From NCBI GenBank assembly GCA_041651055.1, contig JBAZJW010000004.1, forward strand, positions 2,018 to 66,017: a stretch of 64,000 nucleotides of DNA, written 5' to 3'. The position numbers and the translations under genes were made by a program. The DNA comes from Minisyncoccota bacterium (lineage in GTDB: Bacteria; Patescibacteriota; Minisyncoccia; Phycocordibacterales; UBA5272). Under the pieces are notes generated by a model, which did not search any database, had not been told where the DNA came from, and saw only the letters and a program-made list of their open reading frames with translations. This document shows, in pieces, positions 8,098 through 26,982 of the stretch; within the stretch, counting starts at the first letter, position 1; each line of letters opens with the position of its first letter.

Positions 8098-8130
8098 AGT
8101 GGGCAACAAAATAAGAGAGGACAAAAAGTC

Positions 8131-8412
8131 ATGACAACCATTCTAGGCCAACATATTTCACTCATACGGCCCTCACCACCACACAGGGCCATCGTCTACA
8201 AAAACGAGCGACCCCGGCCTAAGTCTCCAGTTAGGAGCAAACGCGCCATGTGTGGTAAGGTTCGTTTGATATGTGTGGAAGTTCTAGGTGGGATTATCTA
8301 CTCCATCACTAAAGGCACACACTTAAACGTCATACAAACCTTCAACATAGACCCAAGTAGGGTGATACGAACAGGTTGGCAACTCGATAACAACCAGTTC
8401 ATATGGCGGTGA
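8131..8412 (+). CDS. hypothetical protein (93 aa)
   Basis: ATG preceded by the variant motif AATAAGAGAGGAC. Confidence 0.45.
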   Translation: MTTILGQHISLIRPSPPHRAIVYKNERPRPKSPVRSKRAMCGKVRLICVEVLGGIIYSITKGTHLNVIQTFNIDPSRVIRTGWQLDNNQFIWR

Positions 8413-8419
8413 GGTGAGT

Positions 8420-8791: not shown

Positions 8792-9042
8792 TCACTAAAA
8801 AACGTCACAACACTGAGTATTCAGTTGCTAAGGAATGGGCACGTAAGCGTAACTTCACGAAGTTTCTGTTGGCAGGTATGAAAGCTAGGTTACGTATCAC
8901 AGAGGTTCAAGAGGTTCTTACACCTATCGAACAGCAACGTGTATTGGAACTAACCCAAGAACTCAACGCCATTGTTAGAGCATGGTCAGGTAACAACCCA
9001 TTGTCGAGAACGTTGTTTGAGAGTAACAAGAGAGGAAAGTAG
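8788..9042 (+). CDS. hypothetical protein (84 aa)
   Basis: ATGA overlap with the upstream gene. Good coding continuity. Confidence 0.5.
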   Translation: MITKKRHNTEYSVAKEWARKRNFTKFLLAGMKARLRITEVQEVLTPIEQQRVLELTQELNAIVRAWSGNNPLSRTLFESNKRGK

Positions 9043-9043
9043 T

Positions 9044-9244
9044 ATGAACGTAAACCGCGTCGTAGAAGTGAGGATGTTTGATTCGTTAGGACAGCCAACC
9101 TTTAACTACGACATAGACGTCAGCACGAGTCTCATGTCTAAAAAATGGCCCAAGTTCGTGTATACTGTGTTGAGAGAATCTCTAACTGTGTGTATGCAAG
9201 GCGGGTGTGTTATTATGAGAGGTGTGTTAACGCCCAGACTATGA
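9044..9244 (+). CDS. hypothetical protein (66 aa)
   Basis: ATG preceded by AACAAGAGAGGAAAGTAG. Confidence 0.4.
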   Translation: MNVNRVVEVRMFDSLGQPTFNYDIDVSTSLMSKKWPKFVYTVLRESLTVCMQGGCVIMRGVLTPRL

Positions 9245-9263
9245 AAAGAGAGGAAACTAAATT

Positions 9264-9416: not shown

Positions 9417-9751
9417 AACCCGACTTAAATGACCCCATGAGTGTTGCTATTGCTAGTGCAACGTTAGTATTGCATAATGCGTTTAGTCGTAGCATGAACA
9501 CAACCTTCGAACAAGAATTCGTTTATGTCCCAATGCAATTTCCAGTTGGGTTTGCAGAAACACTTTCGTCGTTAATGGAAACAGACCAAGAAATAGGTCC
9601 GATAGTTGTTACGAGTATTTTAGTGGCTGGCTTAGAAAGTATTATTAATGACTTCAACCTGAGAAACAAAGACTCCAGAGTCGCATTACGAGAAGCTATA
9701 ACAAAACATGCAAACGAAGCACGTAAGGCACAAAATGCTGACTTACACTAA
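9413..9751 (+). CDS. hypothetical protein (112 aa)
   Basis: GAAGGAGG RBS before ATG 9413. Confidence 0.5.
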   Translation: MKPDLNDPMSVAIASATLVLHNAFSRSMNTTFEQEFVYVPMQFPVGFAETLSSLMETDQEIGPIVVTSILVAGLESIINDFNLRNKDSRVALREAITKHANEARKAQNADLH

Positions 9752-11433: not shown

Positions 11434-12327
11434 ATGCTCGTAACCGACCCTTCGACGATACAAGAGCTACGTGCAAATGGTATAGACGTCTATGACTTCT
11501 CATCAATTAGTCGTGCTATCTCATGTCCCCGTGCATACTACTATCGACACGAACTGGGCTTGACCATAGCTGTCACACCTGAGCCTAGTTACTCACTAGA
11601 GTTTGGCCGATGCGTCCACAAAGCATTGCAACACTGGTATGTGAATCGCAAGGACGACGATGCCATTTTAATGTTTGCAAACGAATTCAAACCCTTTGAA
11701 GAAAAGCCTACGTTAAGTGCCAAAACCGGCAAGGAACTAGACGCCACGTATACGGTTAGGTTTGGCTGTTCGTTGTTGGATGCATACTTCACTAAATATG
11801 CTAACGAGAATTATACGTTAATCCAGAACGAGGTTCCAGTAGCAGAGGAACTAAGCGACAATGTATTCATAGCAGGTAGGATTGACAAAGTAATTGATCG
11901 TAATGGTAAGATTGTGTTTATCGACCACAAGACAAGTAAATACATGGACAAATACACCGTCAATCCTAATCCCCAGTTTGCAGGGTATAAGTTTCTATGC
12001 GAGAAGTTAACTGGCAAACACGTAAGCGGTGAGTTGGACATGTTAGGTGTAGCGAAGTCTAAGGACTTAACTACGTTGCTCAGACGTGAGCCGTTTGACT
12101 ACACTCCTTGGCAAATGGAACAATGGAAGCGTAGTATAACCGAACACATCAACATGATTCGTAGGTGGCGTGAGAGTAAGTTCTTTCCGCAGTATTGGAA
12201 CTGCAAACCGTTTTTTAGGGATTGTCAATTCTTGCCGTTGTGTACGTTGGCACGTCACGAAGAAGAAGATAGTTTGATTGCTAACCTCTATCGGGTGGAG
12301 TTTTGGGACCCCTTTACAGTAGACTAA
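11434..12327 (+). CDS. PD-(D/E)xK exonuclease, Cas4/RecB-like with Fe-S-type cysteine cluster
   Basis: N-terminal Cys (AISCPRAYYY). GRIDKVIDRNGKIVFIDHKTSKY resembles the D..(D/E)xK motifs. C-terminus has three Cys: CKPFFRDCQFLPLC. Confidence 0.55.
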   Translation: MLVTDPSTIQELRANGIDVYDFSSISRAISCPRAYYYRHELGLTIAVTPEPSYSLEFGRCVHKALQHWYVNRKDDDAILMFANEFKPFEEKPTLSAKTGKELDATYTVRFGCSLLDAYFTKYANENYTLIQNEVPVAEELSDNVFIAGRIDKVIDRNGKIVFIDHKTSKYMDKYTVNPNPQFAGYKFLCEKLTGKHVSGELDMLGVAKSKDLTTLLRREPFDYTPWQMEQWKRSITEHINMIRRWRESKFFPQYWNCKPFFRDCQFLPLCTLARHEEEDSLIANLYRVEFWDPFTVD

Positions 12328-13588: not shown

Positions 13589-14188
13589 ATGGACCTAACC
13601 ACTAATAAAAATGCACAGGTAGCAACTCAGCGTATCAAGGGTAAAAAGCTGACGTTGCAGGATTTGAAGCGTGCAAATAGTGTTACCACTCAAATTAAGA
13701 ACGTATACATACTATGCGATATTAGCGGTTCGATGAGTGGGAACAAACTGACCTCACTTAGAGACGCCTTGAAGAAGGTCTACCGTCCTGGTATTAAGGT
13801 GTTTGCGTTTAGCGATCAAGTGTACGAGCTACAAGAATCTGACTTTGCCTTGTTACAGGTGATGGGCGGTACGGGCATGATGAACGTGTTACGTGAAACC
13901 TGGCGTTGCGATCCGCGTCATATAATTCTTATCACTGATGGTGAGCCAACTGATACCAGTGAAGACGAAATCCTACTCGCAGCTGAGGCCCACAAAACCA
14001 TACCTATTGATACGATTGGTGTGAGCGAATATGGTCGACGTGGCTTCAATGCCGGGTTTCTAGAGGCGTTGTCACGCATCACTGGTGGCAAATTTAACGA
14101 CTGCAGCAAACCGTTTGAATTAACCTTTATAGTTGAAACCCTACTAATAGGTATGGGTTCCGAGAAGAGAGGAGCAATTCAACTATGA
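13589..14188 (+). CDS. von Willebrand factor A (vWA) domain protein
   Basis: MIDAS motif DISGSMSG. ILITDGEPTD block. Confidence 0.65.
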   Translation: MDLTTNKNAQVATQRIKGKKLTLQDLKRANSVTTQIKNVYILCDISGSMSGNKLTSLRDALKKVYRPGIKVFAFSDQVYELQESDFALLQVMGGTGMMNVLRETWRCDPRHIILITDGEPTDTSEDEILLAAEAHKTIPIDTIGVSEYGRRGFNAGFLEALSRITGGKFNDCSKPFELTFIVETLLIGMGSEKRGAIQL

Positions 14189-14439
14189 GAACCTATAATG
14201 TTATATATTTTCTAGACGACAAAGAGAACCTAACCTGTCACATGGATTTGGGAACTTATTATGACAGTATAATCATTAACAACGAGACTGATTACATACA
14301 CGCCAACCCACAAACGATATTTTATGTCCCAATTCATGACGAGCAGACGTTTGTTAACTTCAAAAATTCAGTTATTTGGGCATTTAACCACTACATGAAG
14401 AATAAACATGCATCAACTCACACTAGTCCTAAGGAGTAA
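14185..14439 (+). CDS. hypothetical protein (84 aa)
   Basis: ATGA overlap. Preceded by a variant of the conserved leader (GAGAAGAGAGGAGCAATTCAACT). Confidence 0.45.
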   Translation: MRTYNVIYFLDDKENLTCHMDLGTYYDSIIINNETDYIHANPQTIFYVPIHDEQTFVNFKNSVIWAFNHYMKNKHASTHTSPKE

Positions 14440-14443
14440 GCCA

Positions 14444-15247
14444 ATGCAACTCAACATTCCAGACCCAACGTCAGTGAATGATTACATTCCTGATAGTTAT
14501 AATGCACTAATCTACGGCCCGTCTGGGACAGGTAAGACTGAATTCTGGGCAACCTGGGCTGAGGCAGGTGAGGTGTTGGGACTAGACTCTGATCAGGGTA
14601 TCGTAACAATCAAGTCTACACCTAGAATCTCACCTGAGCTTAAAGCACGTATCAAACACATACCCATTATTGACAAATCCACCGACCCTCACATCAAAGA
14701 ACCCATTGGTTGGGCTATAGTAAAGGCAGTCGTTGAGTCTGTCGCTGCTACGGGTAAGTTTGGTAACTGCCAACCCAAAACTCTCGTCATAGACTCCATG
14801 ACCACAGTCTCAGCTATGACAATGACATGGGTGTTAACTCAAAACCGCAAGTCCCCTGAGACTCAACCATCCTTGCCAGACTGGGGCAAACAAATTGAGG
14901 AACTCAAACGTATTATTAACCTTGGACGTAGCATTAAGGGTGTCAACTTTATATGCGTCGCACATGAGCAATACGAGAAAGACGAGTTATCTGGACGTGT
15001 GTGGTGCTTGCCACTTGTCACTGGTAAGTTTGCCCAACAAATAGGTGGATACTTCGACGAGGTTTATCATGCTAAAGTCGAGCAAACTGGTGACAAGCAT
15101 GTGTATAAACTGGACACAAAAGCGACGGGACTTATTACTGCTAAGTCGCGGTTAGACTTACCCACACCAATCGCAACTCATTACAACAGTCTCAAAGGCA
15201 CGTTGGAAAAGTTGCAAGTGAAAGGAGGTGTCACAACAACAAAATGA
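14444..15247 (+). CDS. AAA_24/Sak4-like RecA-family ATPase
   Basis: Walker A ALIYGPSGTGKTEF. Walker B-like TLVIDS. FICVAHE block. Confidence 0.55.
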   Translation: MQLNIPDPTSVNDYIPDSYNALIYGPSGTGKTEFWATWAEAGEVLGLDSDQGIVTIKSTPRISPELKARIKHIPIIDKSTDPHIKEPIGWAIVKAVVESVAATGKFGNCQPKTLVIDSMTTVSAMTMTWVLTQNRKSPETQPSLPDWGKQIEELKRIINLGRSIKGVNFICVAHEQYEKDELSGRVWCLPLVTGKFAQQIGGYFDEVYHAKVEQTGDKHVYKLDTKATGLITAKSRLDLPTPIATHYNSLKGTLEKLQVKGGVTTTK

Positions 15248-15292
15248 CAATTACCCTTATTATTAACCGTTAACCAAATGGAGGAGCTTAGT

Positions 15293-15733
15293 ATGCCAAC
15301 GATTAACCTTGGAGTAGATTACGAAGACGTGAAATCTCTTGACGAATGGATCGTCGTGCCCGGTGGGACATATTCATTTGTCGTTCGCGGCATCGACGAG
15401 AAAAAATCCAAAACCGGACGGCCGATGTTGAACTGGCGAATTGAAGTCACCGACCCCGTGTCACAGCGCCCTGTGAGTGTGTTCTACAACACTGTCCTGC
15501 CGTGGATGGACAACGGCGAACTCAGCGTTAAGGGTTGCGGGATGCTTGTGTCTATCGCAAAGGCAGTAGGCTTGCCCTGGACTGGCAAAGACCTCAACAC
15601 TGAGGACTACATCGGACGTGCCGGTAGCGTCGTGCTCAAAGTTAGTAAAGCTCAGAAAGACGACGGGACTGGTAAATACGTCGACGATCCTGATGGTAAG
15701 GTCCGTAACGAAGTTGAGAAGTTTGTCTACTAA
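15293..15733 (+). CDS. hypothetical protein, possibly ssDNA-binding partner of the ATPase
   Basis: AATGGAGGAG RBS. Position downstream of a Sak4-like gene. No clear motif. Confidence 0.4.
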   Translation: MPTINLGVDYEDVKSLDEWIVVPGGTYSFVVRGIDEKKSKTGRPMLNWRIEVTDPVSQRPVSVFYNTVLPWMDNGELSVKGCGMLVSIAKAVGLPWTGKDLNTEDYIGRAGSVVLKVSKAQKDDGTGKYVDDPDGKVRNEVEKFVY

Positions 15734-15803
15734 CCATTCCCACATCTATTAACCTTTTTCCAAGCATGACATTAGTTGTGCTAACTCTCTAGGAGGTTCT
15801 AAT

Positions 15804-16076
15804 ATGAAGACCGAACAAGTAGAAATCAAGTCCAAAGGCGAATCGTTGGGAACGTTTGACTACGCATACCCTGAGACGTTGGACGAGGGTATCAGTGTTG
15901 ACACAGCGGACTCAGTGTTTAAGCTGTACGCCATGCAGCGCAAGATTCGTTTCATGGACGCCAAACGCAGAGAGCTGACTGGTGGTGGTCTCCCGAAGGC
16001 TCTCACTGAGAAACTTCGCTCCTTGGATAAGGGCAAGTTGGCTCAGATTGCCGAGTTGCTGGGGATCGAACTGTAG
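15804..16076 (+). CDS. hypothetical protein (90 aa)
   Basis: AGGAGG RBS. Confidence 0.45.
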   Translation: MKTEQVEIKSKGESLGTFDYAYPETLDEGISVDTADSVFKLYAMQRKIRFMDAKRRELTGGGLPKALTEKLRSLDKGKLAQIAELLGIEL

Positions 16077-16366
16077 GTTATTAGTCGTTAGCTCCCTAAC
16101 CGGGGTTGGAGGGTTCCGCACCTAATGGGATTTAACTTAGGTTAGATATACACACTGGAACGCTTGATGTTCATGCAACTACCGGTCTTACACTTGGGAA
16201 TTTACATGACGAGAGGAACCAGTCATGTGAGGTTGCAAGTGGGGGAGCTTATTACTAGCGTAGCGGTGGTAGGGTAGAAACAAAGGGTTGAATCTAGACG
16301 TCATTGCGCCTATAGGCAGAGTAAGACCCGTTCTGCCCGAAACCGCCACTTAAAGGAGGGGGAAAG

Positions 16367-16606
16367 ATGGATGACAATAGACCATTCCCAATTCAAGGTG
16401 GAGTTTTTAGACAGCCTGACGGGGAAGTTCGGAGGCCCGTCGAGCGTTATTTACCGTGTACTATTCCGTGGTGGTTAGCGGAGGAAGCGTATAAATTGTA
16501 TGTCAAGGAAGGCGGAAGAGGCCAAACGCTGGAGAGATTAGCGGAACGTGGCGGTTTTGGCCGTGAAGAACTTATATACTTAATTCGTGGACGGTGGGGT
16601 GAGTGA
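16367..16606 (+). CDS. small protein with C-terminal HTH-like segment (island gene)
   Basis: G-rich RBS AAAGGAGGGGGAAAG. QTLERLAERGGFGREELIYLI resembles an HTH. Confidence 0.45.
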   Translation: MDDNRPFPIQGGVFRQPDGEVRRPVERYLPCTIPWWLAEEAYKLYVKEGGRGQTLERLAERGGFGREELIYLIRGRWGE

Positions 16607-16637
16607 CCACGCCCCAGGCGGGCGAAAGGGGGAAGGG

Positions 16638-17099
16638 ATGAACATAGAATTTGAAGTTTTGACAGATACGCTTTTACATATTGGAGAGGTTCAAGAGAAT
16701 TTGGAAATCTTTATCGGAGAACTACGGCAGCGTGGTCTTGCACATGACAGAACGAAGCTGCAAGAACTAGAATTTGACGCTTTCGTTTCAACCCGCCCGA
16801 AGTTCAAGAAAGCGAACTACGGAAGTCCTGAGTATCAAGAATGTGTGGATGCTATCAAGCCAGCGATTGACCATCATTACCAGCTTAACAGGCACCACAC
16901 GGCTTTTCATCAAGAAGGTATCAACGAAATGAACCTCATTGACATTCTCGAAATGGTGGCTGATTGGAGAGCCGCAGCGAGAAGAAGTCCAACTCAGACA
17001 TTTGAACAGTCCTTAGATTATGCGTTTAATAAGTACAAGATAGACGAACAGCTAAAGGGGATTATACTGCATACTCTCAAGGACTTGAATTGGGTGTAG
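16638..17099 (+). CDS. hypothetical His-rich protein (153 aa, island gene)
   Basis: GGGGGAAGGG RBS before ATG 16638. HHYQLNRHHTAFH suggests a metal-binding patch. Confidence 0.45.
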   Translation: MNIEFEVLTDTLLHIGEVQENLEIFIGELRQRGLAHDRTKLQELEFDAFVSTRPKFKKANYGSPEYQECVDAIKPAIDHHYQLNRHHTAFHQEGINEMNLIDILEMVADWRAAARRSPTQTFEQSLDYAFNKYKIDEQLKGIILHTLKDLNWV

Positions 17100-17110
17100 G
17101 AGGTCCAGCC

Positions 17111-17461
17111 ATGAACGATGTGAACAGGGAAGTGGCAGAGAAGGTTATGGGGTGGGAAGTGTTGGACATAGACTTGCCGCCTGGTGAAAAACGAATGTGG
17201 GCCTCACACGAAGTCGATTCCATTGGCTATAAATATTTCAAGCCACAAATAGCCGTGAAGGACTTCGACCCCATGCACCGGATTGAGCACGCGTGGATGG
17301 TGGTGGAGAAGTTTGATGGTTGTCTGCATTTGAGGCAGCACAATAAAAATGGAAAATGGGAAGCGTTCTTTTGTGACGCTGGCCCAGGGCACGAAGCAGA
17401 GGGAGACACCGCACAAGAAGCGATATGCAAAGCCGCACTCGCGGCAAAGGAGGAAGCATGA
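17111..17461 (+). CDS. hypothetical protein (116 aa, island gene)
   Basis: GTAGGAGG RBS. AEKVMGWE motif. C-terminal KAALAAKEEA is repeated in a downstream ORF. Confidence 0.45.
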   Translation: MNDVNREVAEKVMGWEVLDIDLPPGEKRMWASHEVDSIGYKYFKPQIAVKDFDPMHRIEHAWMVVEKFDGCLHLRQHNKNGKWEAFFCDAGPGHEAEGDTAQEAICKAALAAKEEA

Positions 17462-17715
17462 AACTAGGAAAGTGTATTTATACAGGCGAACACGGAGACT
17501 ATGCTCACCATATTCTTTTGGATGAGTTTCCAAATGACGTGCTCAAAATTTCAACGGTGTTCTCAAGGAGCATTAATGGCTACAGTGAGAACTCAATCCT
17601 CTTGGAAAGAGGAACGGTCAGAAGGCTGGTCACTCTCCTACAAGAATGGCTGGGAGAACCTATAGGCATGACTGCCAAGGTAAAGCTGCCGAAGAAGCGG
17701 AAGGAGGGGAAGTGA
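17458..17715 (+). CDS. hypothetical protein (85 aa, island gene)
   Basis: AAAGGAGGAAGC RBS. ATGA overlap. Confidence 0.4.
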   Translation: MKLGKCIYTGEHGDYAHHILLDEFPNDVLKISTVFSRSINGYSENSILLERGTVRRLVTLLQEWLGEPIGMTAKVKLPKKRKEGK

Positions 17716-17891
17716 TGTTGGTCCAATGTCCTTACTGCTTCGGTAAGGCAGTTATCTGCTGCGGTCTGTGTGGTGGTCGCAAAGTGGTTCCAAAAGAGGC
17801 TGCAAACCAATACAGAAAACTTGCGAATCCTACTGTGGATGACAGGATTAGGATACGAGAGCAGTTCAAGGCAAAGGAGGGGGAGGGATGA
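17715..17891 (+). CDS. zinc-finger protein (59 aa, CxxC..CCGLCGG)
   Basis: GGAAGGAGGGGAAG RBS. MLVQCPYCFGKAVICCGLCGGRKV. Confidence 0.4.
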   Translation: MLVQCPYCFGKAVICCGLCGGRKVVPKEAANQYRKLANPTVDDRIRIREQFKAKEGEG

Positions 17892-18079
17892 TACTAGCCC
17901 TGAAACTATACAAGCTCTGTCCATCCTGGCGGTATCACGTTAGGCGCACATGGGCTATGGAGCCGCCGTTTAGGACGCATTGGTTCTGTAAGCATTGTCC
18001 TATAAAGATGTTCAACGGGATAGGAATGGCGTGGAGACGAACAAGAGACAGGGCCGCACTCGCGGCAAAGGACAACTGA
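17888..18079 (+). CDS. Cys/His-rich small protein (63 aa)
   Basis: AAAGGAGGGGGAGGG RBS. C-terminal AALAAK repeats the junction sequence seen at 17433. Confidence 0.35.
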   Translation: MILALKLYKLCPSWRYHVRRTWAMEPPFRTHWFCKHCPIKMFNGIGMAWRRTRDRAALAAKDN

Positions 18080-18255
18080 TGCTGCTGCGTATAACTGCCC
18101 CGCATTTTGTAGCAGGAATGGACACGGAAACCAGAGAATGTGCCCCGATTATTAATTATATGAAGATGTGGACTATTGGCGGTATCAAGTCTTATTGTGA
18201 AAAGAAAGGTTGGAAGTGCGAAAAGATAGACAAGAAGGAGGGGGAGCATGAGTGA
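18079..18255 (+). CDS. small Cys-containing protein (58 aa)
   Basis: TGATG overlap start. Confidence 0.3.
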   Translation: MLLRITAPHFVAGMDTETRECAPIINYMKMWTIGGIKSYCEKKGWKCEKIDKKEGEHE

Positions 18256-18700
18256 GCGAAGGTTTTATATAGCAGAAATAGAGGAGAATGATGGAACATA
18301 CAAAAACCCAGAAGTAATCACCGAGTCTGTGCTGAGGCGGTGGGCAATCCAAATGTTCAATGCTCAATGGACTTGTGCTGATGATGTGAGAATTGACATC
18401 CTACTCCACGGCTCGGGGGAGAAGGGCGATGACTTACCTCCCCGTGAGATGAGGGCAGAGCCGTATTACAAGAAGCTCGGTGAGGGGGAGAAGGAAGTAA
18501 AGGTCAACCACGAACAGTTTGAAGCTGTACGAGCAGCAATGCCCTCCCCCGCGCCGACAAGGGCGGAGTGGGAAGCGTGGATAAACAGATTTCCGTGGGT
18601 GTATTTGCAGGATTGCACCGTAATGGGAACAGGATATGATAATGGGGCAGAAAGGTTAAGGGACTGGTTCAAGTCCATGCCAATCATTCCCAAGGAGTGA
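18248..18700 (+). CDS. hypothetical protein (150 aa). In-frame TGA is followed by a 46-codon extension (to 18838) that repeats its C-terminal module
   Basis: AGAAGGAGGGGGAG RBS. See the finding on the in-frame stop. Confidence 0.45.
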   Translation: MSERRFYIAEIEENDGTYKNPEVITESVLRRWAIQMFNAQWTCADDVRIDILLHGSGEKGDDLPPREMRAEPYYKKLGEGEKEVKVNHEQFEAVRAAMPSPAPTRAEWEAWINRFPWVYLQDCTVMGTGYDNGAERLRDWFKSMPIIPKE

Positions 18701-18842
18701 ACCCCCACGCCGACAAGGGAGGAATGGGCTCACAAACTGGCCCATGCGCTATGTACGAAGGACTATTTTAGCCATGAGACACAAAGGGAAGAGGTAGAAA
18801 ACTTACTTCTTTCCATGCCCATCGTGCCGAAAGGATGAACTA

Positions 18843-19016
18843 ATGAACAAATCAAAACTACTCCGCGACAGAGACATAGCTATCATACTATCCACAATAC
18901 ATCTCTCTAAGCGTGAGAAACGAACTAGATCAACAACCTATACAGTTACTCTACCAACACTATTATTAATCATACTAGCAATAGCCTTATTATTAACCTC
19001 ACACCTAACCTACTAG
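18843..19016 (+). CDS. small membrane-anchored protein (57 aa)
   Basis: C-terminal TM segment LPTLLLIILAIALLLTSHL. Weak RBS. Confidence 0.3.
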   Translation: MNKSKLLRDRDIAIILSTIHLSKREKRTRSTTYTVTLPTLLLIILAIALLLTSHLTY

Positions 19017-19028
19017 GAGGAACCCGAC

Positions 19029-19751
19029 ATGATACCTACTATGATGAATGACCTAACCAATCCCCCACTTGACAATGTTGCAGTCTACCTAAGTGGTGGT
19101 ATAGACTCGTCCGTGGTGCTTTATCACGTGACTAAAAAATGCAAAAACGTTCGCACGTATACGGCAGTTTTTGGTGTATCTAATGACGAGTCTGCCAAAG
19201 CTCAACGCGTGGCTAACTATTTTGGCACAACACACACTGAGGTATTTATATTCAAGTCTGATATACTAGACTCTCTCCCATATGTAATGCGTCTATTCGA
19301 CAGACCTCGATACAACATCTGGCCGTTTTTTCTGGCTAGACGTGCCTTCTATGATGAGGTTAAAACAGCCTACATAGGTGAGGGGTCAGATGAGATATTT
19401 GGTTATCCCGATCGTGGTTACCTCGAAGGCTGGGCCGGGCAGTTGATTTATGTACGTCCAACCTATGATATAGTCAACTCCCACTTCGGCATCACTCTCA
19501 AAGCCCCGTTCACTGAGTTACACCACAAGCTCATAGCAGACTACGGTTCCCAGTCCGCACCGTTAGCATACTTCGATCCACCCAACAAATCCTACCTTCG
19601 TTCAGCATATAAACGTCTCTTGCCAGACTGGATACTCAACACTCCCACAACTGCACCAGCATTTACTAACTACACCGAACTTGGGATCACTAAACATGAA
19701 TTCCAAATCGCAGCTACACGTGCATGGTTGGGGGTGCATGATGTTCACTAA
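19029..19751 (+). CDS. asparagine-synthetase-like (AsnB C-terminal domain only) PP-loop amidotransferase
   Basis: PP-loop VYLSGGIDSSVV. AsnB signature YIGEGSDEIFGYPDR. No glutaminase domain and no QueC-type Cys cluster. Confidence 0.7.
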   Translation: MIPTMMNDLTNPPLDNVAVYLSGGIDSSVVLYHVTKKCKNVRTYTAVFGVSNDESAKAQRVANYFGTTHTEVFIFKSDILDSLPYVMRLFDRPRYNIWPFFLARRAFYDEVKTAYIGEGSDEIFGYPDRGYLEGWAGQLIYVRPTYDIVNSHFGITLKAPFTELHHKLIADYGSQSAPLAYFDPPNKSYLRSAYKRLLPDWILNTPTTAPAFTNYTELGITKHEFQIAATRAWLGVHDVH

Positions 19752-20490
19752 ACTAACCATCGAACTCACCAACATCTGCAACTTATCATGTGATCCTTGT
19801 CCACGTCACCACCTAAAAATGAACTTTGGCTACATGAACGAGCAGCTATTCTATAAGTTGCTAGACCAATGTCCCCCAGGTACCACTATCCTACCGTTCT
19901 GGCGTGGTGAATCGCTCCTACACCCACAGGCTATTGAGCTGCTCTATTACGCAGTTTCCCGTAAATTAGATGTTGTGTTAGCAACCAACGGTTCCCGAAT
20001 GGTTGAACTACACCAACAAATCGGCCTCATAAAAAAGCTAAAAGCGATCAACGTGAGCTTACATAACATCGACTCATATTCAGCCTACCTATGGCTCCAA
20101 GAACTCAAACACGCTACAAACTCACCAATCGACATACAACTATCCTATGTCGAAGGTGAACACACCGACGTTCCAGAGGAGTTATTTAACCACTTAAACC
20201 TTCGCCGTTATAAACAACACTCCTTCAACGGTGTATGGGGATGCACCGATGCTGAACCAGTATTATACCAAGACTGGTGTCAGCGTTTAGACACTGACCT
20301 AGTAATCACGTGGGATGGTAAAGTCTCACGTTGCTGCTATGTGTGGCAACCAATAGAAGGTTTAGATGCTAACACACAAACTCTGGAATCCATACAATAT
20401 CATCCAAATTATAGTCGTATCATTACTAACTATCCCGACCGCATTTGCTCTGCGTGTGACCAATGGCGAGGCGGGGGTAGAACTCTCTAA
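19738..20490 (+). CDS. radical SAM enzyme
   Basis: CxxxCxxC triad in IELTNICNLSCDPCPRHH. Additional C-terminal Cys (RCCYVW...CSACDQW). Confidence 0.7.
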   Translation: MMFTKLTIELTNICNLSCDPCPRHHLKMNFGYMNEQLFYKLLDQCPPGTTILPFWRGESLLHPQAIELLYYAVSRKLDVVLATNGSRMVELHQQIGLIKKLKAINVSLHNIDSYSAYLWLQELKHATNSPIDIQLSYVEGEHTDVPEELFNHLNLRRYKQHSFNGVWGCTDAEPVLYQDWCQRLDTDLVITWDGKVSRCCYVWQPIEGLDANTQTLESIQYHPNYSRIITNYPDRICSACDQWRGGGRTL

Positions 20491-20505
20491 CCCAGGAGTC
20501 AAACT

Positions 20506-21321
20506 ATGGACATTTTAATCCTTGGTGGCGATGGCATGTTGGGGCATCAGTTACTTAAATCCCTAAGTCATAAACACTACGTAAAAGCAACCATTCACGG
20601 GCCGGAGATGTTTGGTAGAATCAACACATTTCCATATGTTGACGTCACAAACACAGACCACTTAACAGAAATACTCTCTGAATTTCACCCTAAAGTTGTT
20701 ATCAATGCAGTGGGTTTCGTTAAACAACGGTTTCATGACTACGTCAAAAACATCGAAGTAAACGCTTTGTTTCCACACAAACTAAACAACCTCTGTAAGT
20801 CTATTCATGCGCGACTTATACACATCAGCACGGACTGTGTGTTTAGTGGTAACAATAGCAGCTACACAGAACAACATACACCTGATCCTGTTGACATCTA
20901 TGGTATGACAAAACTACTTGGTGAAATTCACTCATCTTATGGTTGTCTTACTCTACGCACGTCATTCATAGGACGTGAACTTAAGAATAAGTTAGGTTTA
21001 CTTGAGTGGTTTCTAGGTCAAACCGGGACGAGTGTAAACGGCTACATAAACGCTGTTTTCAGTGGCCTAACCACCATCGAATTTGGGCGTGTTATAGAGA
21101 TGATACTAGACTCCCACGAACTACATGGTCTACTTAACGTATCTGGTTATCCCATTAATAAGTATGATCTCTTACTTAAACTCCGTGCTAAATTCAACCT
21201 AAACATAGACATCAAACCATGTATGGAACCAGTGATTAATAGGTCGTTAGATTCATCCAAGTTTATGAAACGCTTCAACTACCAGCCCCCAACCTGGGAT
21301 TCGTTGATTGAGGAACTATGA
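20506..21321 (+). CDS. NAD(P)-dependent sugar reductase/epimerase, RmlD-like
   Basis: ILILGGDGMLG Rossmann motif. YGMTK (YxxxK) catalytic pair. About 270 aa, as in dTDP-4-dehydrorhamnose reductases. Confidence 0.6.
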   Translation: MDILILGGDGMLGHQLLKSLSHKHYVKATIHGPEMFGRINTFPYVDVTNTDHLTEILSEFHPKVVINAVGFVKQRFHDYVKNIEVNALFPHKLNNLCKSIHARLIHISTDCVFSGNNSSYTEQHTPDPVDIYGMTKLLGEIHSSYGCLTLRTSFIGRELKNKLGLLEWFLGQTGTSVNGYINAVFSGLTTIEFGRVIEMILDSHELHGLLNVSGYPINKYDLLLKLRAKFNLNIDIKPCMEPVINRSLDSSKFMKRFNYQPPTWDSLIEEL

Positions 21322-22268
21322 AAATCCTTCACTACCATCACAACGGCGTGGGTGTGGTGCTTAGCAACGAAATGAACACCAGACCTAACATCACATCAAA
21401 GGTGTTCACCACCGCCAGACATCCTTTTGGGTTTAAGGCTGACTACGTGCTACCACCCAATATACCAATTCTAGGTTCACAAAACCTTTCATATTGGATA
21501 TTGTTTAGTACACTACACAAACGTTATGATATATTACATAGTCATGATGGAATTCCCCTACCACAACGTGTATTACGCAAATGGTCTGGCCGGGTTGTGC
21601 AGCACTACCACAATCCATTATTTACTGACTTCTACCCACACACTCCCATACCATCGTTCGTATCAACGCCAGCCATGACATTAACTATCCCAAATTCTGT
21701 GTGGATGCCACTACCTATAGACCCACTTAAATTCCATCCAGGTGTTAGACTTTATAACCCATACAATCCAGTTATAGGATTCTCATACAATATAAGCGCA
21801 GACAAGAATAAACTAAAATACATTCCACTTAATGAACTTATGCAGTTCTCACGGGACTGTAAACAAGTCATCATGAAAGGTTTATCTGATTCTATTCATC
21901 ATACCAAAATGCCAGCCTACTACCAATCAATAGACATTTATGTGGATCGCTTGGGACTGGACTCCTATGGTTGGCAAGCTATCGAAGCGGCGGCGTGTGG
22001 GTGCGTGGTAGTTACTCAAGCCAAGAACTCTCCAGAAGATTGTCCATTTAGTTATGCAACTCCAGAGACACTTTCTAACGTGCTAGAATCCATCATAACT
22101 CTACCAGTTAAGATGTTCATAAACATGAAACATCAATCCATTGAATACGCCAATAAATATCACAACGTCTCAACACTCGTTGACAGATACCTACAATATT
22201 ACTCTAACCTAGGAGACCTAAATGCTTTTAAAAACTGCATGGAGCACACTAGCATTACTGCTATATAA
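21318..22268 (+). CDS. putative glycosyltransferase
   Basis: C-terminal QAIEAAACGCVVV resembles the GT-B E...G.PVV sugar-donor motif. ATGA overlap. Confidence 0.45.
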   Translation: MKILHYHHNGVGVVLSNEMNTRPNITSKVFTTARHPFGFKADYVLPPNIPILGSQNLSYWILFSTLHKRYDILHSHDGIPLPQRVLRKWSGRVVQHYHNPLFTDFYPHTPIPSFVSTPAMTLTIPNSVWMPLPIDPLKFHPGVRLYNPYNPVIGFSYNISADKNKLKYIPLNELMQFSRDCKQVIMKGLSDSIHHTKMPAYYQSIDIYVDRLGLDSYGWQAIEAAACGCVVVTQAKNSPEDCPFSYATPETLSNVLESIITLPVKMFINMKHQSIEYANKYHNVSTLVDRYLQYYSNLGDLNAFKNCMEHTSITAI

Positions 22269-23250
22269 GCGTCAGAGTCAATGGGCCGTGCCAACATCAT
22301 TAGGTGTATGTCTGACAGATAGATGCAACATCAAATGCACCTACTGTATGCGAGAAACGTTTAAACCACCAAGCGGTGAGTTAGACCTAGACGATATTCA
22401 AGTTATGTTACGTAATGCACCTACTGTTACAGGCGTCTGTATTATGGGTTTGTGTGAACCTTATTGTAATCCTAATACGAGTCGTATCATCAAATGGTTA
22501 AAAGATGAAGGTCACTACAGTATATCATTCACTACAAATTGTACCATCCCATTCACACCCGTTAAATTAGATGCACTTCGACGCGTTGATGACATGGCCG
22601 TGAGTATAGACTCAGCTGATCCAGTGGTGTTTCGTGAATTAAGAGGTACTAGCTTAGACACAGTCATGACCCACCTAACCGATATTATTCGTTATAAACG
22701 TGTGCTCAAGTTAACCGCCACTGACTCACCACCCATTCACATCAATGCTGTAATAACTCAACGTAACTGGTCTGGCATACCAGACCTAATAAAAATGTTC
22801 GAACCCTATGCTAACGACCTAACCTACCTAATGCTAGACCCATGCACACGACCTGATTACTCAAAGGCAGACGTATTTACATCAACTGAGAAACCGTCTA
22901 ACTTCGACGACTTTAAACACCTTGCCAAACTCTCACCACTTAAAGTCATAGGTTTCGACTACATGTTCCAGCCATCTAGTGAGTGGTCTACCTGCTCAAT
23001 GTCGTGGTTAGGCCCATTCGTACAACCCAACGGTGACGTTTATCCTTGTTATGGTTATAGAACTGTCGTTGGTAACATCTATCGTGAATCCCTACTCCAC
23101 GCCTGGAACTCCCCACTCATACGAGAGTTTCGACGTTCCTTACAAACTCCCTATCCACCGTTAGTTCAATGTCGTTTCTGTAACTTCGCCCGTCCTAAAT
23201 GGCAAGTAGGTGGTGCATACAATAAACTCCACGAGGATCAAGACAAATGA
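22222..23250 (+). CDS. radical SAM enzyme with SPASM-like C-terminal Cys cluster
   Basis: CLTDRCNIKCTYCMRE triad. C-terminal CYGYR...QCRFCNF is SPASM-like. Start uncertain (22222 or a downstream ATG). Confidence 0.65.
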   Translation: MLLKTAWSTLALLLYKRQSQWAVPTSLGVCLTDRCNIKCTYCMRETFKPPSGELDLDDIQVMLRNAPTVTGVCIMGLCEPYCNPNTSRIIKWLKDEGHYSISFTTNCTIPFTPVKLDALRRVDDMAVSIDSADPVVFRELRGTSLDTVMTHLTDIIRYKRVLKLTATDSPPIHINAVITQRNWSGIPDLIKMFEPYANDLTYLMLDPCTRPDYSKADVFTSTEKPSNFDDFKHLAKLSPLKVIGFDYMFQPSSEWSTCSMSWLGPFVQPNGDVYPCYGYRTVVGNIYRESLLHAWNSPLIREFRRSLQTPYPPLVQCRFCNFARPKWQVGGAYNKLHEDQDK

Positions 23251-23948
23251 CAGACTTTGATTATCAGTGGAAATACTTATCCAACTCACCCTATTTAGAA
23301 CACAACTCAGATAGGGTGAAAGAACTCCTAGACCTAACAATGCTACCGCCTGAGTGGTTTAATGGTAAGTATTGCCTAGACGTTGGCTGTGGTTCGGGAC
23401 GCTACACATATGCTATGCAACAACTAGGTGCAAAGGTTATATCAATAGACAACAGCATCTATGCACTCCAGCTAACAAGTCAAATAAACAAACACGTCTT
23501 TCTACATGACATCACCAAAGCACCGTTTTTTATACGTGGTTGTGCATTAACATTCTGCTATGGTGTGATCCACCACACACCCAACCCTAGAAAAGCCTTC
23601 TCAAACCTAGCAAAGGGTGTACCTAGTGGAGGTTATTTATTTGTTATGGTATACCGTGACTCTCCCGTTCAAAAACGGTACGAAGGTTTCAGAAAACTAT
23701 TTAAATCCCTACCTGCTGTAATGAGGTTACCTTTTGTTTATATGATTACTCTAGTGTTCCGTTATAATTACATCCCACCATTTTATCATCCAGTTCATAC
23801 AGTTCATGGTTGGTGGGACGCATTAAGTCCGACATACAACTTCACATTCACCGAGGACGAAATAGTAACGTGGTTTAGAGAAGAAGGGTTTAGTAACTTA
23901 TACACTTCTACCCTACCTAACATATGTATGACAGGACTAAAACTATGA
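23247..23948 (+). CDS. class I SAM-dependent methyltransferase
   Basis: Motif I LDVGCGSGRYTYAM. Confidence 0.65.
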   Translation: MTDFDYQWKYLSNSPYLEHNSDRVKELLDLTMLPPEWFNGKYCLDVGCGSGRYTYAMQQLGAKVISIDNSIYALQLTSQINKHVFLHDITKAPFFIRGCALTFCYGVIHHTPNPRKAFSNLAKGVPSGGYLFVMVYRDSPVQKRYEGFRKLFKSLPAVMRLPFVYMITLVFRYNYIPPFYHPVHTVHGWWDALSPTYNFTFTEDEIVTWFREEGFSNLYTSTLPNICMTGLKL

Positions 23949-24589
23949 AAATCCTCTTTGTCCCACACGATGCAGGTAACTTTGCTCCGTTGGTAGCTAA
24001 GTGTCTACGTGACCAAGGTTACGATGCTAGGTGTATAATTTTTTCACAATCGTATCTAAGTTATAAGGTTCAACCACCAGACAAAGTAATCGGCGGTCGT
24101 GGTGTGTGGTCACTATTAATATTAGAACTAAAACGCTGGCTCGTGTTGTATGAGGCACTTAGTTATGATGTGATTGTTTTTACCTTTGGTAGTACCATCC
24201 TCCCGAACCCGGCGTTTATAGGTTGGGGATTGAGTAGTAAAATTTCACTAAAAATGCGTATGTTTTATTCATGTATAGTCTATCCATTCAGTTATCTAAT
24301 GTTAGATGTTTGGTTGTTACATAAACTACACAAACGCATAGGTGTATTGTTCCAGGGCGGCGACGCGCGTAGAGGTGACATACTACGTACGCGTGGGTAT
24401 CCAGACATAGACGAAGAACCCAAGGGTTATTATATTAACTTCATTGACAGATTAAAGTCCCGGCGTGCCAAACTTTGGGACAAATATGCTGATGTTATTT
24501 GGTACCACAACCCCGATCTCTGGTGGGGACTACCTAAACGCTCAACCTTTATGCCGTACCCAATAGAGACTAACCATGAAACGTTCTGA
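23945..24589 (+). CDS. GT-B glycosyltransferase, N-terminal (acceptor) half-like
   Basis: MKILFVPHDAGNFAPLVAKCLRDQGYDARCI resembles a GT4 N-terminus. ATGA overlap with the methyltransferase. Confidence 0.4.
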   Translation: MKILFVPHDAGNFAPLVAKCLRDQGYDARCIIFSQSYLSYKVQPPDKVIGGRGVWSLLILELKRWLVLYEALSYDVIVFTFGSTILPNPAFIGWGLSSKISLKMRMFYSCIVYPFSYLMLDVWLLHKLHKRIGVLFQGGDARRGDILRTRGYPDIDEEPKGYYINFIDRLKSRRAKLWDKYADVIWYHNPDLWWGLPKRSTFMPYPIETNHETF

Positions 24590-24932
24590 TATACGTAGAC
24601 TCTACGTCCATAACCGCATGATCCTAATGAAAGGATTTAATGAGGTTGGTATAGTTATAAGTATCTGGAACACGTCTATGCTACTGTTGCTTACGTTGTC
24701 TAACTTATTTGGACGGTCTATTAAAGTTGTGTGGATGGTGGTTATAGCTATACCTACTATTGTAGTTGTCTTTTATTTAGTAGGTCTCCTACTCTACAAA
24801 CGCGGCTTCATGAACGCGGAGTCAGAATGGATAGCAAGTGTAAGTCCTCCACATATGGACATAATCAAACGTCTAGACCACATAGAAAAGGAGCTACAGG
24901 ATGTCAAGACTAACATTCGGACACATAGTTAA
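24576..24932 (+). CDS. small membrane protein (2 TM), between the GT halves
   Basis: Hydrophobic segments IVISIWNTSMLLLLTL and VVWMVVIAIPTIVVVFYLVGLLLY. Confidence 0.4.
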   Translation: MKRSDIRRLYVHNRMILMKGFNEVGIVISIWNTSMLLLLTLSNLFGRSIKVVWMVVIAIPTIVVVFYLVGLLLYKRGFMNAESEWIASVSPPHMDIIKRLDHIEKELQDVKTNIRTHS

Positions 24933-25494
24933 CCACCGTGAGCCAAAAGGTAGTCGTTTCGTATTAGACGCTGTTCATAAAGCACGTATGTCAGGTGCAG
25001 ACTTCGGGTTTATATTTGCTGAACGTCTCTCATATCAGGAGGCTATGAAGTTATACCCCCAAATTGATGTGTTGCTTGAGCAGTTTGTTATAGGCTGGTA
25101 TGGTCTACAAGCATGTGAGTTTGCACTCATGGGTAAGCCGGTTGTAGTCTATCTACGTGAGGCTGACGGCCCGCCGCTGGTACCTAGCCAACTCTGGCAG
25201 GACATACCATTTATCAACGCCACTCCAGATCAAATCCCTGGTGTGATTATAAACATCACCAAGATGTCAACTCTTGCTCTAACTGAATTAGGAAAACGCG
25301 GCATAGCCTTCGTTAAGAAATATCATTCAAACACTGTAGTAACCCAACAAGTCATGAATGAGTTATTAACCCTACCAAATCACTCGGAATTAAACGAATC
25401 TCACGGAAAACTTTCCCCTAAGGAGGTGCATTGTGATGAAAAAGGTAATCCTATTAGCGTGGCTGCTTCAAATAGTGATCTACCCAAACTATAA
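24901..25494 (+). CDS. GT-B glycosyltransferase, C-terminal (donor-binding) half-like
   Basis: GHIVNHREPKGSRFVLDAV and LEQFVIGWYGLQACEFALMGKPVVV resemble the GT4 C-domain E-x7-E region. Confidence 0.5.
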   Translation: MSRLTFGHIVNHREPKGSRFVLDAVHKARMSGADFGFIFAERLSYQEAMKLYPQIDVLLEQFVIGWYGLQACEFALMGKPVVVYLREADGPPLVPSQLWQDIPFINATPDQIPGVIINITKMSTLALTELGKRGIAFVKKYHSNTVVTQQVMNELLTLPNHSELNESHGKLSPKEVHCDEKGNPISVAASNSDLPKL

Positions 25495-25684
25495 AGGCAT
25501 CCAAGGTGAGGTTGACTACTCTCGTCCAGCCATCGTGATTGACAAGGACGAAGTCTACCAAACCATACCAGGTACAACAGAACGTGACTACACTAAACCT
25601 AGCTACACTATAGAAGACAAACGTCCAGATACACGTAGACATCATCAACGTTACATAATCGACATGGAGGACCCGTTGGAATGA
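25436..25684 (+). CDS. small secreted/membrane protein (82 aa)
   Basis: AAGGAGGTG RBS. N-terminus KKVILLAWLLQIVIY is hydrophobic. Confidence 0.35.
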   Translation: MKKVILLAWLLQIVIYPNYKGIQGEVDYSRPAIVIDKDEVYQTIPGTTERDYTKPSYTIEDKRPDTRRHHQRYIIDMEDPLE

Positions 25685-26982
25685 ACATATTCACTATCAA
25701 CCTATCAGACATAACTATCCCACCAACTCGTCAACGTACTGACAAGGACGACAAATACATTGACCAGTTATCCGAATCCATCCGTATGATAGGCCAAATC
25801 AACCCTATTATACTTGACGAAACCAACACCCTCATAGCAGGTTGGTGTCGTATCAAGGCGTTTGAGTTGCTAGGACGCACCGAAATCTATGCACGTCGTT
25901 GGGAGGACTTGGACCAATATGAAAAAGAACTTATCGAGTTCGAAGAAAACGTTAGACGTAAAAATCTATCCTATAACGAACAGTTGCTCGCTGAACTTGC
26001 ACTCCATGAACGATTCCAGCAGTATCACGGCGTACAGAAGTCCCCATTTTACGGCCACGTTTCTAAAGGACGACCCAAATGGCGAGTGGAAGACATGGCT
26101 AACTTTATGGGATTCTCAATAGGTAAAATGAGTGAGCGTCTCAAGCTCGCACAAGAAATCCGCCGCAACCCTGAGATGGGTGACTTCAAGACCGAATCCC
26201 AAGCACGTCACGCTATGGAACGCAAACAAGCACAGGCTATACGTACGGTGTTAGCTGCTGTTAAGGTGAGTGAACAGAAGGAAACCACACCATCCAACGA
26301 ACCCAAACCATTATTTGAAACCTATCACCACGGTGACATCACCCTCATTAACGCAGACGCCAAACTCGTCATCCCTACCCTACCAGACGACTCTATAAGT
26401 TGCCTCATCACCGACCCGCCTTGGAACGTTCTCTTTGATGAGTCATTTGGTACAGACACCAAAATAGGACTGGAGTTAACTCATGAGACTCTCAGACTTC
26501 TATACCCAAAATTGCAGTCAGGATCATTATGTGTCATGTATTGTGCAACAAGACACCTTATCACAGGAAAAATTTATGAACTCGTTCAGTCTTGTGGTTA
26601 TGCTATCTACCCCACTATACATATATGGTACAAACCACACTCTGCAGGAAGTTCCATACCTTATCGTGAACTCAAGAACGACTACGAACCCGCGCTCTTA
26701 TTCTCAAAAGGACTCGGAAGAGATTTTCATAGTCCTATGTGGGCAGTTATTAGTGGTCTAGTAGAAGGCAAACGTTATCATACTGCACAGAAATGTACGG
26801 ACGTGCTGAAGCAACTCATTCAGAATTTCACGGTTGAAAATGAGTTAGTGATTGACCCGTTTATGGGTTCCGGACAGACGATGTTAGCCTGTCGTGCGTT
26901 GAAGCGTCGCGGATTGGGTATAGAAAAAGAACCTGACCATTATCATACTGCTATTTATCTAATGGAGGAACCTCATGTCTGA
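25681..26982 (+). CDS. ParB-like nuclease domain fused to beta-class DNA (N6-adenine/N4-cytosine) methyltransferase
   Basis: ParB-N block IPPTRQR...LSESIRMIGQINPIILDE. MTase motif IV ITDPPWNV, then motif I FMGSGQT near the C-terminus (beta-class order). Confidence 0.7.
   Translation: MNIFTINLSDITIPPTRQRTDKDDKYIDQLSESIRMIGQINPIILDETNTLIAGWCRIKAFELLGRTEIYARRWEDLDQYEKELIEFEENVRRKNLSYNEQLLAELALHERFQQYHGVQKSPFYGHVSKGRPKWRVEDMANFMGFSIGKMSERLKLAQEIRRNPEMGDFKTESQARHAMERKQAQAIRTVLAAVKVSEQKETTPSNEPKPLFETYHHGDITLINADAKLVIPTLPDDSISCLITDPPWNVLFDESFGTDTKIGLELTHETLRLLYPKLQSGSLCVMYCATRHLITGKIYELVQSCGYAIYPTIHIWYKPHSAGSSIPYRELKNDYEPALLFSKGLGRDFHSPMWAVISGLVEGKRYHTAQKCTDVLKQLIQNFTVENELVIDPFMGSGQTMLACRALKRRGLGIEKEPDHYHTAIYLMEEPHV

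Follow-up and report, generated by a model that had tools for sequence, protein, structure and literature searches.

We describe here an island of small genes at positions 16077-18840 of a 64,000-nt stretch of contig JBAZJW010000004.1 (hereafter the window), which makes up most of a ~65-kb phage genome recorded from metagenomic sources only, namely a Logan contig (SRR8542065, 65,442 bp) and an NCBI contig binned in a metagenome-assembled genome (MAG). An initial annotation had seen in this region a structured non-coding gap of 290 bp and nine or more small open reading frames (ORFs) of visibly higher G+C, with a G-rich Shine-Dalgarno (SD) dialect of their own, and had proposed a horizontally acquired island of anti-defence type from another phage lineage. 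The run of small ORFs is real, but it amounts to eight tightly packed plus-strand genes, here called i1 to i8 (16367-18700), plus a remnant without a start codon. Neighbouring genes overlap by their start and stop codons or lie 0-31 nt apart, and the features on the plus strand are as follows.

16077-16366 (+): structured non-coding leader of the array, 290 nt, recognised by its fold and by conservation of its 3' part
16337-16366 (+): leader A, CCGAAACCGCCACTTAAAGGAGGGGGAAAG, running up to the i1 start codon
16367-16606 (+): i1, 79 amino acids (aa), from a large unnamed phage family with proteins of ~75-80 aa
16607-16637 (+): leader B, intergenic CGCCCCAGGCGGGCGAAAGGGGGAAGGG, a short GC inverted repeat plus a G-rich SD
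16638-17099 (+): i2, 153 aa, DUF5662 (Pfam PF18907, E = 2e-30)
17111-17461 (+): i3, 116 aa, Phage ABA-sandwich or ABA_S (Pfam PF18066, E = 4e-18)
17432-17451 (+): first copy of a 20-mer, at the ABA_S 3' end (..AALAAKE), comprising the hairpin GCCGC-ACTC-GCGGC and then the first bases of the i4 SD
17458-17715 (+): i4, 85 aa, orphan in a singleton cluster
17715-17891 (+): i5, 58 aa, zinc-ribbon-like, with cysteines C5, C8, C15, C16 and C19
17888-18079 (+): i6, 63 aa, carrying the second 20-mer copy at its 3' end
18053-18072 (+): second copy of the 20-mer, at the i6 3' end just ahead of the i7 start codon
18079-18255 (+): i7, 58 aa, in a very large family whose proteins measure 50-70 aa
18248-18700 (+): i8, 150 aa, rare family, preceded by leader E
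18701-18838 (+): start-less remnant, in frame after the i8 TGA, with a PTREEW...SMPIVPKG domain

Leaders, junctions and related arrays

When the 55 nt ahead of each start codon were aligned with those of phages carrying pieces of the array, leaders of 20-35 nt proved to be conserved independently of the genes that adjoin them. Leader A (CCCGAARCCGCCAC(A)TTAAAGGAGGGGGAAAG-ATG) stands ahead of i1 in the window and in L089, a 532-bp contig with i1 at 89% aa identity, and in a recognisable variant ahead of an unrelated 61-aa gene in L096, which is the closest relative of the window (core genes 56-71% identical in aa and ~66-68% in nt). Leader B (CGCCCCAGGCGGGCGAAAGGGGGARGGG-ATG) precedes the DUF5662 gene in the window and in L089 and an unrelated 69-aa gene in L096, where positions 9624-9655 match it at 31 of 32 nt between flanking genes that are both unrelated and unalignable. 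Leader C (GGTCCAGCSATGAACG; GGTCCAGCS-ATGAACG) is found ahead of ABA_S in the window and ahead of i6 in L096, and leader E (AAGGAGGGGGAGC; AAGGAGGGGGAGY-ATGAGT) precedes i8 in the window, L008, L078 and L096, with three different genes upstream of it (i7, ABA_S and a Zn-finger ORF).

The comparison with L008 (NCBI JBINNZ010005265.1) places the breakpoints exactly. This phage, with core proteins 25-29% identical in aa to those of the window, carries ABA_S, then directly the i8 homologue, then a 68-aa gene; i8 likewise follows ABA_S directly in L009. The L008 junction between ABA_S and i8 is a single one, GCCGCACTCGCGGCgAAGGAGGGGGAGC-ATG(i8). The window splits it into a left part, GCCGCACTCGCGGCAAAGGAGG..(i4), and a right part, ..AAGGAGGGGGAGC-ATG(i8), and relative to L008 the 790-bp i4-i7 block lies between two AAGGAGG SDs, so that both breakpoints fall in leaders.

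The shared segments are far more alike than the phages that carry them. The L008 ABA_S gene is 96% identical in nt to the window over 200 nt (17262-17461). An unrelated phage type, L078, with a 692-aa replication protein upstream and a backbone of 35% GC, has a module in which ABA_S is followed by one small Zn-finger ORF and then i8, its ABA_S being 89% identical in nt over window positions 17107-17316. In L096 the i6-i7 block is 91% identical in nt and is followed by an i8-like gene, and the array as a whole sits at a different position, between the ParB-methylase and DNA polymerase genes. Array segments of 91-97% nt identity in phages whose cores are ~66% identical in nt or 25-29% in aa indicate that the exchange was recent. 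The i1, DUF5662 and i7 genes each occur elsewhere in phages without their island neighbours, and the island is a mosaic of genes with separate histories rather than a single import from one lineage. Of the acquisition proposed initially, the accessory and exchanged character of the block therefore stands and its arrival in one piece from another phage lineage does not. We also note a 63-66 aa zinc-ribbon ORF (M[KH]CPxCxxxMKCFFT...YREYVC.LC) that accompanies the ABA_S/i8 module in L008 (4096-4296) and L078 (4672-4863), on opposite sides of the module in the two phages, and is absent from the window.

The junction sequence reported twice by the initial annotation is a 20-mer, GCCGCACTCGCGGCAAAGGA, present as exact copies that begin at 17432 and 18053, that is, 1 and 3 nt from the positions first given. 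In L096 the i6 gene has a diverged version, GCCGCACTCGTGAAGGA, and hence the exact duplication arose or was homogenised in the window lineage. Apart from its 3' end, and in L096 its 5' leader with the first codons, i6 shows no resemblance to ABA_S, and the idea that it is a degenerate ABA_S paralogue was not supported (BLASTP E = 0.5). It is evidently a real coding gene, as its L096 homologue is 77% identical in aa, 18 of the 31 nt differences fall at codon position 3 and the indels measure 6 and 3 nt. Scans for the 20-mer gave chance matches: in IMG/VR one GC-rich scaffold-protein gene (L010), and in the JGI metagenomes 63 contigs of 49-75% GC with no island homologues, in which the match encodes AALAAK[DE]. 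Scans of IMG/VR for leaders B and E gave nothing new, and a leader E scan of the GTDB genomes gave 10 loci, none with island homologues.

In L008 the i8 homologue is succeeded by a 68-aa gene, and it is the C-terminal part of this gene that the remnant after i8 resembles (44 residues at 50% aa identity, E = 3e-8); the last 34 nt of the 68-aa gene are 97% identical to window positions 18806-18839. With 45 codons, the remnant lacks ~25 N-terminal codons of this second PTREEW-domain gene; i8 itself begins MSERRF..ILLHGEGEK and ends PSPAPTREEW...SMPIVPKE. We read the remnant as a deletion scar; alternatively, it may be a readthrough extension of i8 past its TGA (18698-18700). Recoding of TGA as the cause of this in-frame tail was rejected, since the standard code leaves ORFs of up to 1425 aa uninterrupted.

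With regard to composition, the island has 48.6% GC compared to 44.9% for the window, a value reached by 6% of equal-size windows, and its genes differ from the rest in GC (Mann-Whitney p = 0.009) and in GC at third codon positions (p = 0.005). The higher G+C claimed for the island is therefore real but modest: the rise starts upstream, at ~14.5 kb, in conserved core genes (51-52% in the genes at 15293 and 15804), and i2, at 42.6%, is under the window average. The sharper signal is the skew of G over C, which at +0.205 lies in the top 1.2% of windows in the plus-strand gene block (~4.4 to 33 kb). Across the four backbones of 35-50% GC that carry the module, its GC (~48-49%; 47.8% in L078) and skew (+0.16 to +0.23) are near-constant.

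The SD dialect is likewise borne out for the island itself. The 64-kb window has four plus-strand sites of AGGAGGGG, all of which are SDs of island genes (i1, i5, i6 and i8); the SD of i2 is GAAAGGGGGAAGGG, and all the leaders have a near-consensus SD at correct spacing. On the plus strand, GGAGGGG is restricted to the array in the window, L008, L078 and L096. The GAGAGGAGAC leaders with which the dialect had been contrasted also exist, but their four sites are all at 6659-7657, ~9 kb upstream of the island, and do not belong to neighbouring genes. A second leader dialect, (A)AAAGAGAGGAGAC(T)AAC-ATG (6658-9255 and 14166), serves no fewer than four small early genes, and four others have looser AGAGAGGA versions of it; the island is accordingly not alone in having shared leaders.

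No promoter- or terminator-like site was found at the island gene junctions (8 promoter-like sites in total against 4.6 expected); the predicted plus-strand promoter-like sites are at 16673, 16744 and 17041, all inside i2, and at 18939, beyond the array. GC hairpins of 5 bp occur at three junctions, none with a plus-strand U tract.

The structured gap

The 290-bp gap at 16077-16366 is confirmed as both structured and non-coding. It contains no credible ORF, and its predicted RNA has a minimum free energy of -99.5 kcal/mol (z = -3.44 against dinucleotide shuffles), which after regression on GC ranks in the top 0.8% among 657 same-size windows of the genome. A decayed gene was rejected as its origin, there being no translated similarity to any comparator locus. 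Searches against Rfam gave no family at gathering thresholds, and a sub-threshold snoRNA-like match (E = 1.4) was dismissed as chance. As an observation apart, of all 290-nt windows of the genome the one with the greatest excess of structure, once GC is corrected for, is at ~5045-5335 (31% GC, -79.3 kcal/mol, residual z = -3.65), an AT-rich stretch ahead of the early genes that could be an origin or a regulatory region.

Within the 3' ~100 nt of the gap lies a long hairpin (~16265-16347) that ends just before leader A, and it is these last ~100 nt that L089 keeps. The pairing of an 8-bp inner stem (GGGUAGAA/UUCUGCCC compared to GGGUAGGC/GCCUACCC) is retained in L089 through two double changes. 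In L096 a 194-nt intergenic region closes with a leader A-like sequence, and the closing stem there (GUGGGCG/CGCCCAC) differs from that of L089 (GUGGCGG/CCGCCAC) at two compensated positions. Compensatory pairing across the three sequences is thus suggestive of a hairpin that has been kept. The gap element has no U tract and no promoter-like site, and our best guess is that it is a 5' mRNA processing or stabilising structure that heads the array.

We also observed that the 13-nt 3' arm of the hairpin (CCGAAACCGCCAC, 16337-16349) is complementary throughout, with one G-U pair, to 16548-16560 in i1 (the ERGGFG codons). The L089 leader has a G in place of an A, and a synonymous change from U to C in the ERGGFG stretch of i1 matches it. 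The two stretches may form an alternative long-range pairing, or the complementarity may be coincidental.

Gene products and the hypervariable slot

Two recognised families occur among the island proteins, DUF5662 and Phage_ABA_S. The DUF5662 protein i2 passes the Pfam gathering threshold with 105.8 bits (cutoff 27) and has 162 homologues at E <= 0.001, the best 120 of them 58-76% identical, on contigs binned to many phyla and with neighbours that vary from contig to contig. The family is present in 16 cultured phages, where it is annotated each time as a hypothetical protein, and we found no mention of it in the literature searched. Its invariant residues are H14, H36-D37, H79-H80, H86-H87 and D109, and the peptide HHYQLNRHH quoted by the initial annotation is indeed in i2. 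A structure model of i2 is all-alpha (pLDDT 84.7); neither model nor sequence gave a PDB fold match or an HD family match, and that DUF5662 might be a metal-dependent hydrolase is therefore only a guess. The i3 protein scores 66.2 bits against Phage_ABA_S (cutoff 27) and matches PDB 1R7L, itself of unassigned function, at E = 1e-4.

For i1 there are 352 homologues at E <= 0.01, none with a Pfam domain, in unrelated phage contexts; the best 120 of the 352 are 53-89% identical. The protein itself has a weak Pfam match to Sulfolobus_pRN (E = 0.039) and a possible C-terminal helix-turn-helix. The i7 family numbers 596 representative clusters at E <= 1e-3, and i7 is 98% identical in aa to its L096 counterpart. 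By comparison the i8 family is rare, with seven members detected, and the i8 structure model (pLDDT 53) is unusable for a fold search. No match was found for i1, i3 or i7 in tblastn searches of cultured phages. The orphan i4 has no Pfam or NCBIfam match, a best PHROG hit of E = 0.014 and no IMG/VR relative; i5, which contains the other quoted peptide, CPYCFGKAVICCGLCGG, has no match in Pfam, PHROGs or NCBIfam and no IMG/VR relative, and the IMG/VR search gave no relative of i6.

The genes with Pfam matches around the island are these.

11434-12327 (+): PD-(D/E)XK nuclease, upstream of the island
between the nuclease and AAA_24 genes: DnaJ-domain protein and VWA protein, upstream of the island
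14444-15247 (+): AAA_24 (Sak4-like) ATPase, upstream of the island
15293-15733 (+): DUF669 protein, upstream of the island
25681-26982 (+): ParB-N/DNA methylase fusion, downstream
27274-29613 (+): UDG-PolA polymerase, downstream

The immediate upstream neighbour of the island is g15804, an unassigned protein of 90 aa, preceded by the DUF669 and AAA_24 genes. Comparison with related phages shows that the block is variable. In three IMG/VR relatives (L001, L002 and L004), whose core genes are 37-56% identical in aa to those of the window and in the same order, the g15804 homologue is followed by 0.3-2.9 kb of unrelated small, often Cys-rich ORFs and then by the ParB-methylase and DNA polymerase genes. 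The window's version of this slot extends from 16077 to 25680 and contains, besides the island, an enzyme block of 6.5 kb; the island thus occupies a hypervariable slot of the replication/recombination module. The phage as a whole is remote from those deposited: nucleotide searches with window positions 14000-21000 against INPHARED (50,697 deposited phage records), in near and distant modes, gave no match, and the window DNA polymerase is 28% identical to its nearest counterpart among those records.

Several further observations concern the surroundings. The enzyme block (19029-25494, plus strand; 42.4% GC, skew -0.105, opposite in sign to that of the island) encodes a PP-loop Asn-synthase-like protein, two radical-SAM/SPASM proteins (rSAM/SPASM), an RmlD/epimerase-like protein, a weakly GT1-like protein, a class I methyltransferase and three proteins of unknown kind; it is not present in any relative examined, and its role may be in sugar or nucleotide-sugar chemistry, DNA hypermodification or peptide maturation. 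Between the island and this block, positions 18843-19016 (36% GC) encode a predicted 57-aa membrane protein, whose exact sequence is uncalled in the protein collection. A protein of 172-175 aa has two paralogues in the window (29615-30133 and 32058-32585) and three in L096 (2959-3459, 6147-6614 and 15892-16419), scattered in the replication region of each phage. As to taxonomy, the NCBI MAG that holds the contig is named 'Candidatus Paceibacterota bacterium' (WC444_06290-06320), and DUF5662 homologues lie on phage-size contigs labelled Omnitrophica, Deltaproteobacteria and Cloacimonetes; these MAG and phylum labels are probably binning artefacts and no evidence of host.

Proposed exchange at leaders and its alternatives

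The interpretation we favour, and consider rather probable, is that the small accessory genes of the island form one promoter-less polycistronic array within its hypervariable slot, with the leaders serving as points of exchange. Each gene has its own leader, which frequently opens with a GC hairpin of 5 bp and continues with a strong G-rich SD such as AAGGAGGGGGAG and then ATG; the leader usually overlaps the last codons of the preceding gene. Such leaders might act as homology patches of 20-35 bp through which co-infecting phages exchange, insert or delete single ORFs, perhaps assisted by the PD-(D/E)XK nuclease, AAA_24 (Sak4-like) and DUF669 proteins encoded upstream; phage recombinases are known to be relaxed in the homology that they require, as Lopes et al. 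(2010) and De Paepe et al. (2014) reportedly found. The same leaders would drive efficient, translationally coupled expression, and the products would be dispensable early or middle proteins acting on the host, possibly against its defences. Recombination at leaders would account for the 20-mer duplication, in which the ABA_S 3' end is copied at the end of i6, for the i4-i7 block between two SDs and for the truncated gene after i8.

Several points weigh against this interpretation. Comparator loci with pieces of the array number five only, and recombination is deduced from these; scans for leaders in IMG/VR, the JGI metagenomes and the GTDB genomes gave no further informative loci. The i4-i7 event may have been an insertion in the window or equally a deletion in L008, and i4 and i5 are without detectable relatives. 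The leaders are partly coding and contain the SD, so that selection for expression or for C-terminal residues alone could explain their similarity, and no biochemical function is assignable to any array protein.

A possible, if less probable, alternative is that the leaders are purely expression elements, their SDs and hairpins serving translational coupling, mRNA stability or RNase processing, and that they are shared through co-transfer or convergent selection while recombination may occur anywhere. This would fit the well-spaced SD in every leader, and the compensatory changes by which the hairpin upstream of leader A keeps its pairing in L089 and L096 do point to a role at the RNA level. 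However, 31 of 32 nt shared by leader B between unrelated genes and an exact 20-mer duplication exceed what an SD needs, and the breakpoints between L008 and the window fall exactly in leaders. A little more doubtful to us is the notion that the block is specifically an anti-defence island, with anti-restriction or anti-CRISPR proteins or sponges and degraders of immune signals. Small, variable genes of the early/middle region are typical of such loci, the invariant His/Asp cluster of DUF5662 would fit a metal-dependent hydrolase, and in L096 the slot homologous to that of the island encodes (5594-5815) a protein with the Acb2/Tad1 hairpin domain (Pfam E = 7.7e-20). Against this, searches of Pfam, PHROGs, NCBIfam and PADLOC linked none of the island proteins to a defence or anti-defence family, and DUF5662 lacks both a fold match in the PDB and any mention in the literature searched; the anti-defence function first proposed is thus a hypothesis, whose support, from the L096 slot, is contextual.

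The other explanations we regard as very improbable. Were the Cys-rich peptides (i5 and others) precursors for the downstream enzyme block, in a phage cluster for ribosomally synthesised and post-translationally modified peptides, one would point to the two rSAM/SPASM proteins, the Asn-synthase-like PP-loop enzyme and the methyltransferase directly downstream (19029-23948) and to the five cysteines within 15 residues of i5. Yet the Cys cluster of i5 is N-terminal, unlike that of leader-core precursors, the enzyme block differs from the island in GC and skew and is absent from all other loci with array genes, and its RmlD-like and glycosyltransferase-like genes suggest sugar chemistry instead. 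Vertical inheritance of an ancestral block that the relatives have lost is scarcely credible either: most comparisons had distant relatives only, which leaves it some room, but segments 91-97% identical in nt to phages with such divergent cores, and an array placed elsewhere in L096, speak against it. A chimera joined at the repeated leaders during metagenome assembly is hardly to be expected, as, although short shared sequences are able to mislead assemblers, Logan, NCBI, JGI and ENA all have the same proteins and a contig of 65.4-66.7 kb, reads are as long as the shared stretches (20-200 nt) or longer, and L089 independently has the order gap, i1, leader B, DUF5662.

How would such an array compare to described systems? 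The closest is known from hyperplastic regions in T4-type phages, namely the promoter-early stem-loop (PeSL) cassette, in which a sigma-70 promoter and a stem-loop terminator end in an SD and start codon and mediate modular shuffling (Arbiol et al. 2010, PMC2839356; Comeau et al. 2014, PMC4122927). By analogy the island plausibly works like such a cassette, but it is no PeSL. It shares a conserved stem-loop motif that ends in SD and start codon directly upstream of small non-essential ORFans in a variable region, and the presence of unrelated ORFs between the same motifs in related genomes (the window compared to L096, L008 and L078). It differs in that its junctions have no sigma-70-like promoter or AT-rich upstream element, its hairpins lack a plus-strand U tract and its leaders, of 20-35 nt, lie mostly within the preceding ORF, which indicates genes that are translationally coupled and not separately transcribed. 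Moreover, the phages concerned are of ~40-65 kb with PolA- or MCM-type replication, and are not T4-like.

Mosaic junctions with 'boundary sequences', and morons, were reportedly described in lambdoid phages and mycobacteriophages by Juhala et al. (2000) and by Hendrix and colleagues. The island resembles these in its sharp shifts from near-identical to unrelated sequence at gene boundaries and in its extra genes of atypical composition, which some relatives have and others lack. A classical moron brings a promoter and a terminator with it; none was seen at the island, which on this account is not a moron in the classical sense, and, unlike in lambdoid and mycobacteriophage mosaics, what recurs in unrelated backbones is an entire array of several genes whose leaders keep their order. 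Integrons offer a likeness in their promoter-less ORFs in one orientation, joined by short imperfect hairpins, with variable cargo between conserved joints; however, no integrase adjoins the array (its neighbours are the 90-aa protein and the Asn-synthase-like enzyme), the joints are far shorter than attC and contain the SD, and there is no sign of site-specific recombination. Lacking an integrase, the array is no integron. Phages also have anti-defence and accessory clusters, including loci with Acb2/Tad1-type sponges, and these are similar in their early/middle small-gene position and high turnover and in the Acb2/Tad1-domain gene of the equivalent L096 slot, but the island of the window has no member of any recognised anti-defence family. 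The locus is, in short, a variant of known phage mosaicism and not a demonstrated anti-defence island.

More tentatively, and as a possibility to which we give clearly less weight than to exchange at the leaders as such, we speculate that the array represents a distinct mobile module that circulates among unrelated environmental phages. It would have neither promoter nor integrase and would consist of an ordered scaffold of hairpin and G-rich-SD leaders, with a long structured element of RNA or DNA at its head, in which ORFs are replaced between leaders while the scaffold, the composition (~48.5% GC, skew ~+0.2) and the terminal i8 persist across backbones of 35-50% GC, the leaders being at once translation signals and recombination joints.

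That phage genomes are mosaics is well known, but what in their sequence guides exchange has been documented for few phage groups, for instance in the PeSLs of T4-type phages and the boundary sequences of lambdoid phages. The locus described here provides a compact and checkable case in uncultivated phages, where short leaders that double as ribosome-binding sites mark the points at which gene content differs, and where the array keeps a recognisable compositional signature wherever it is found. If this is general, phage contigs from metagenomes could be screened for clusters of GGAGGGG-type SDs on a single strand in order to locate accessory arrays together with the genes that they carry. The i1 family with its 352 homologues, the i7 family with its 596 representative clusters, and DUF5662 are candidates for roles in host takeover or counter-defence.

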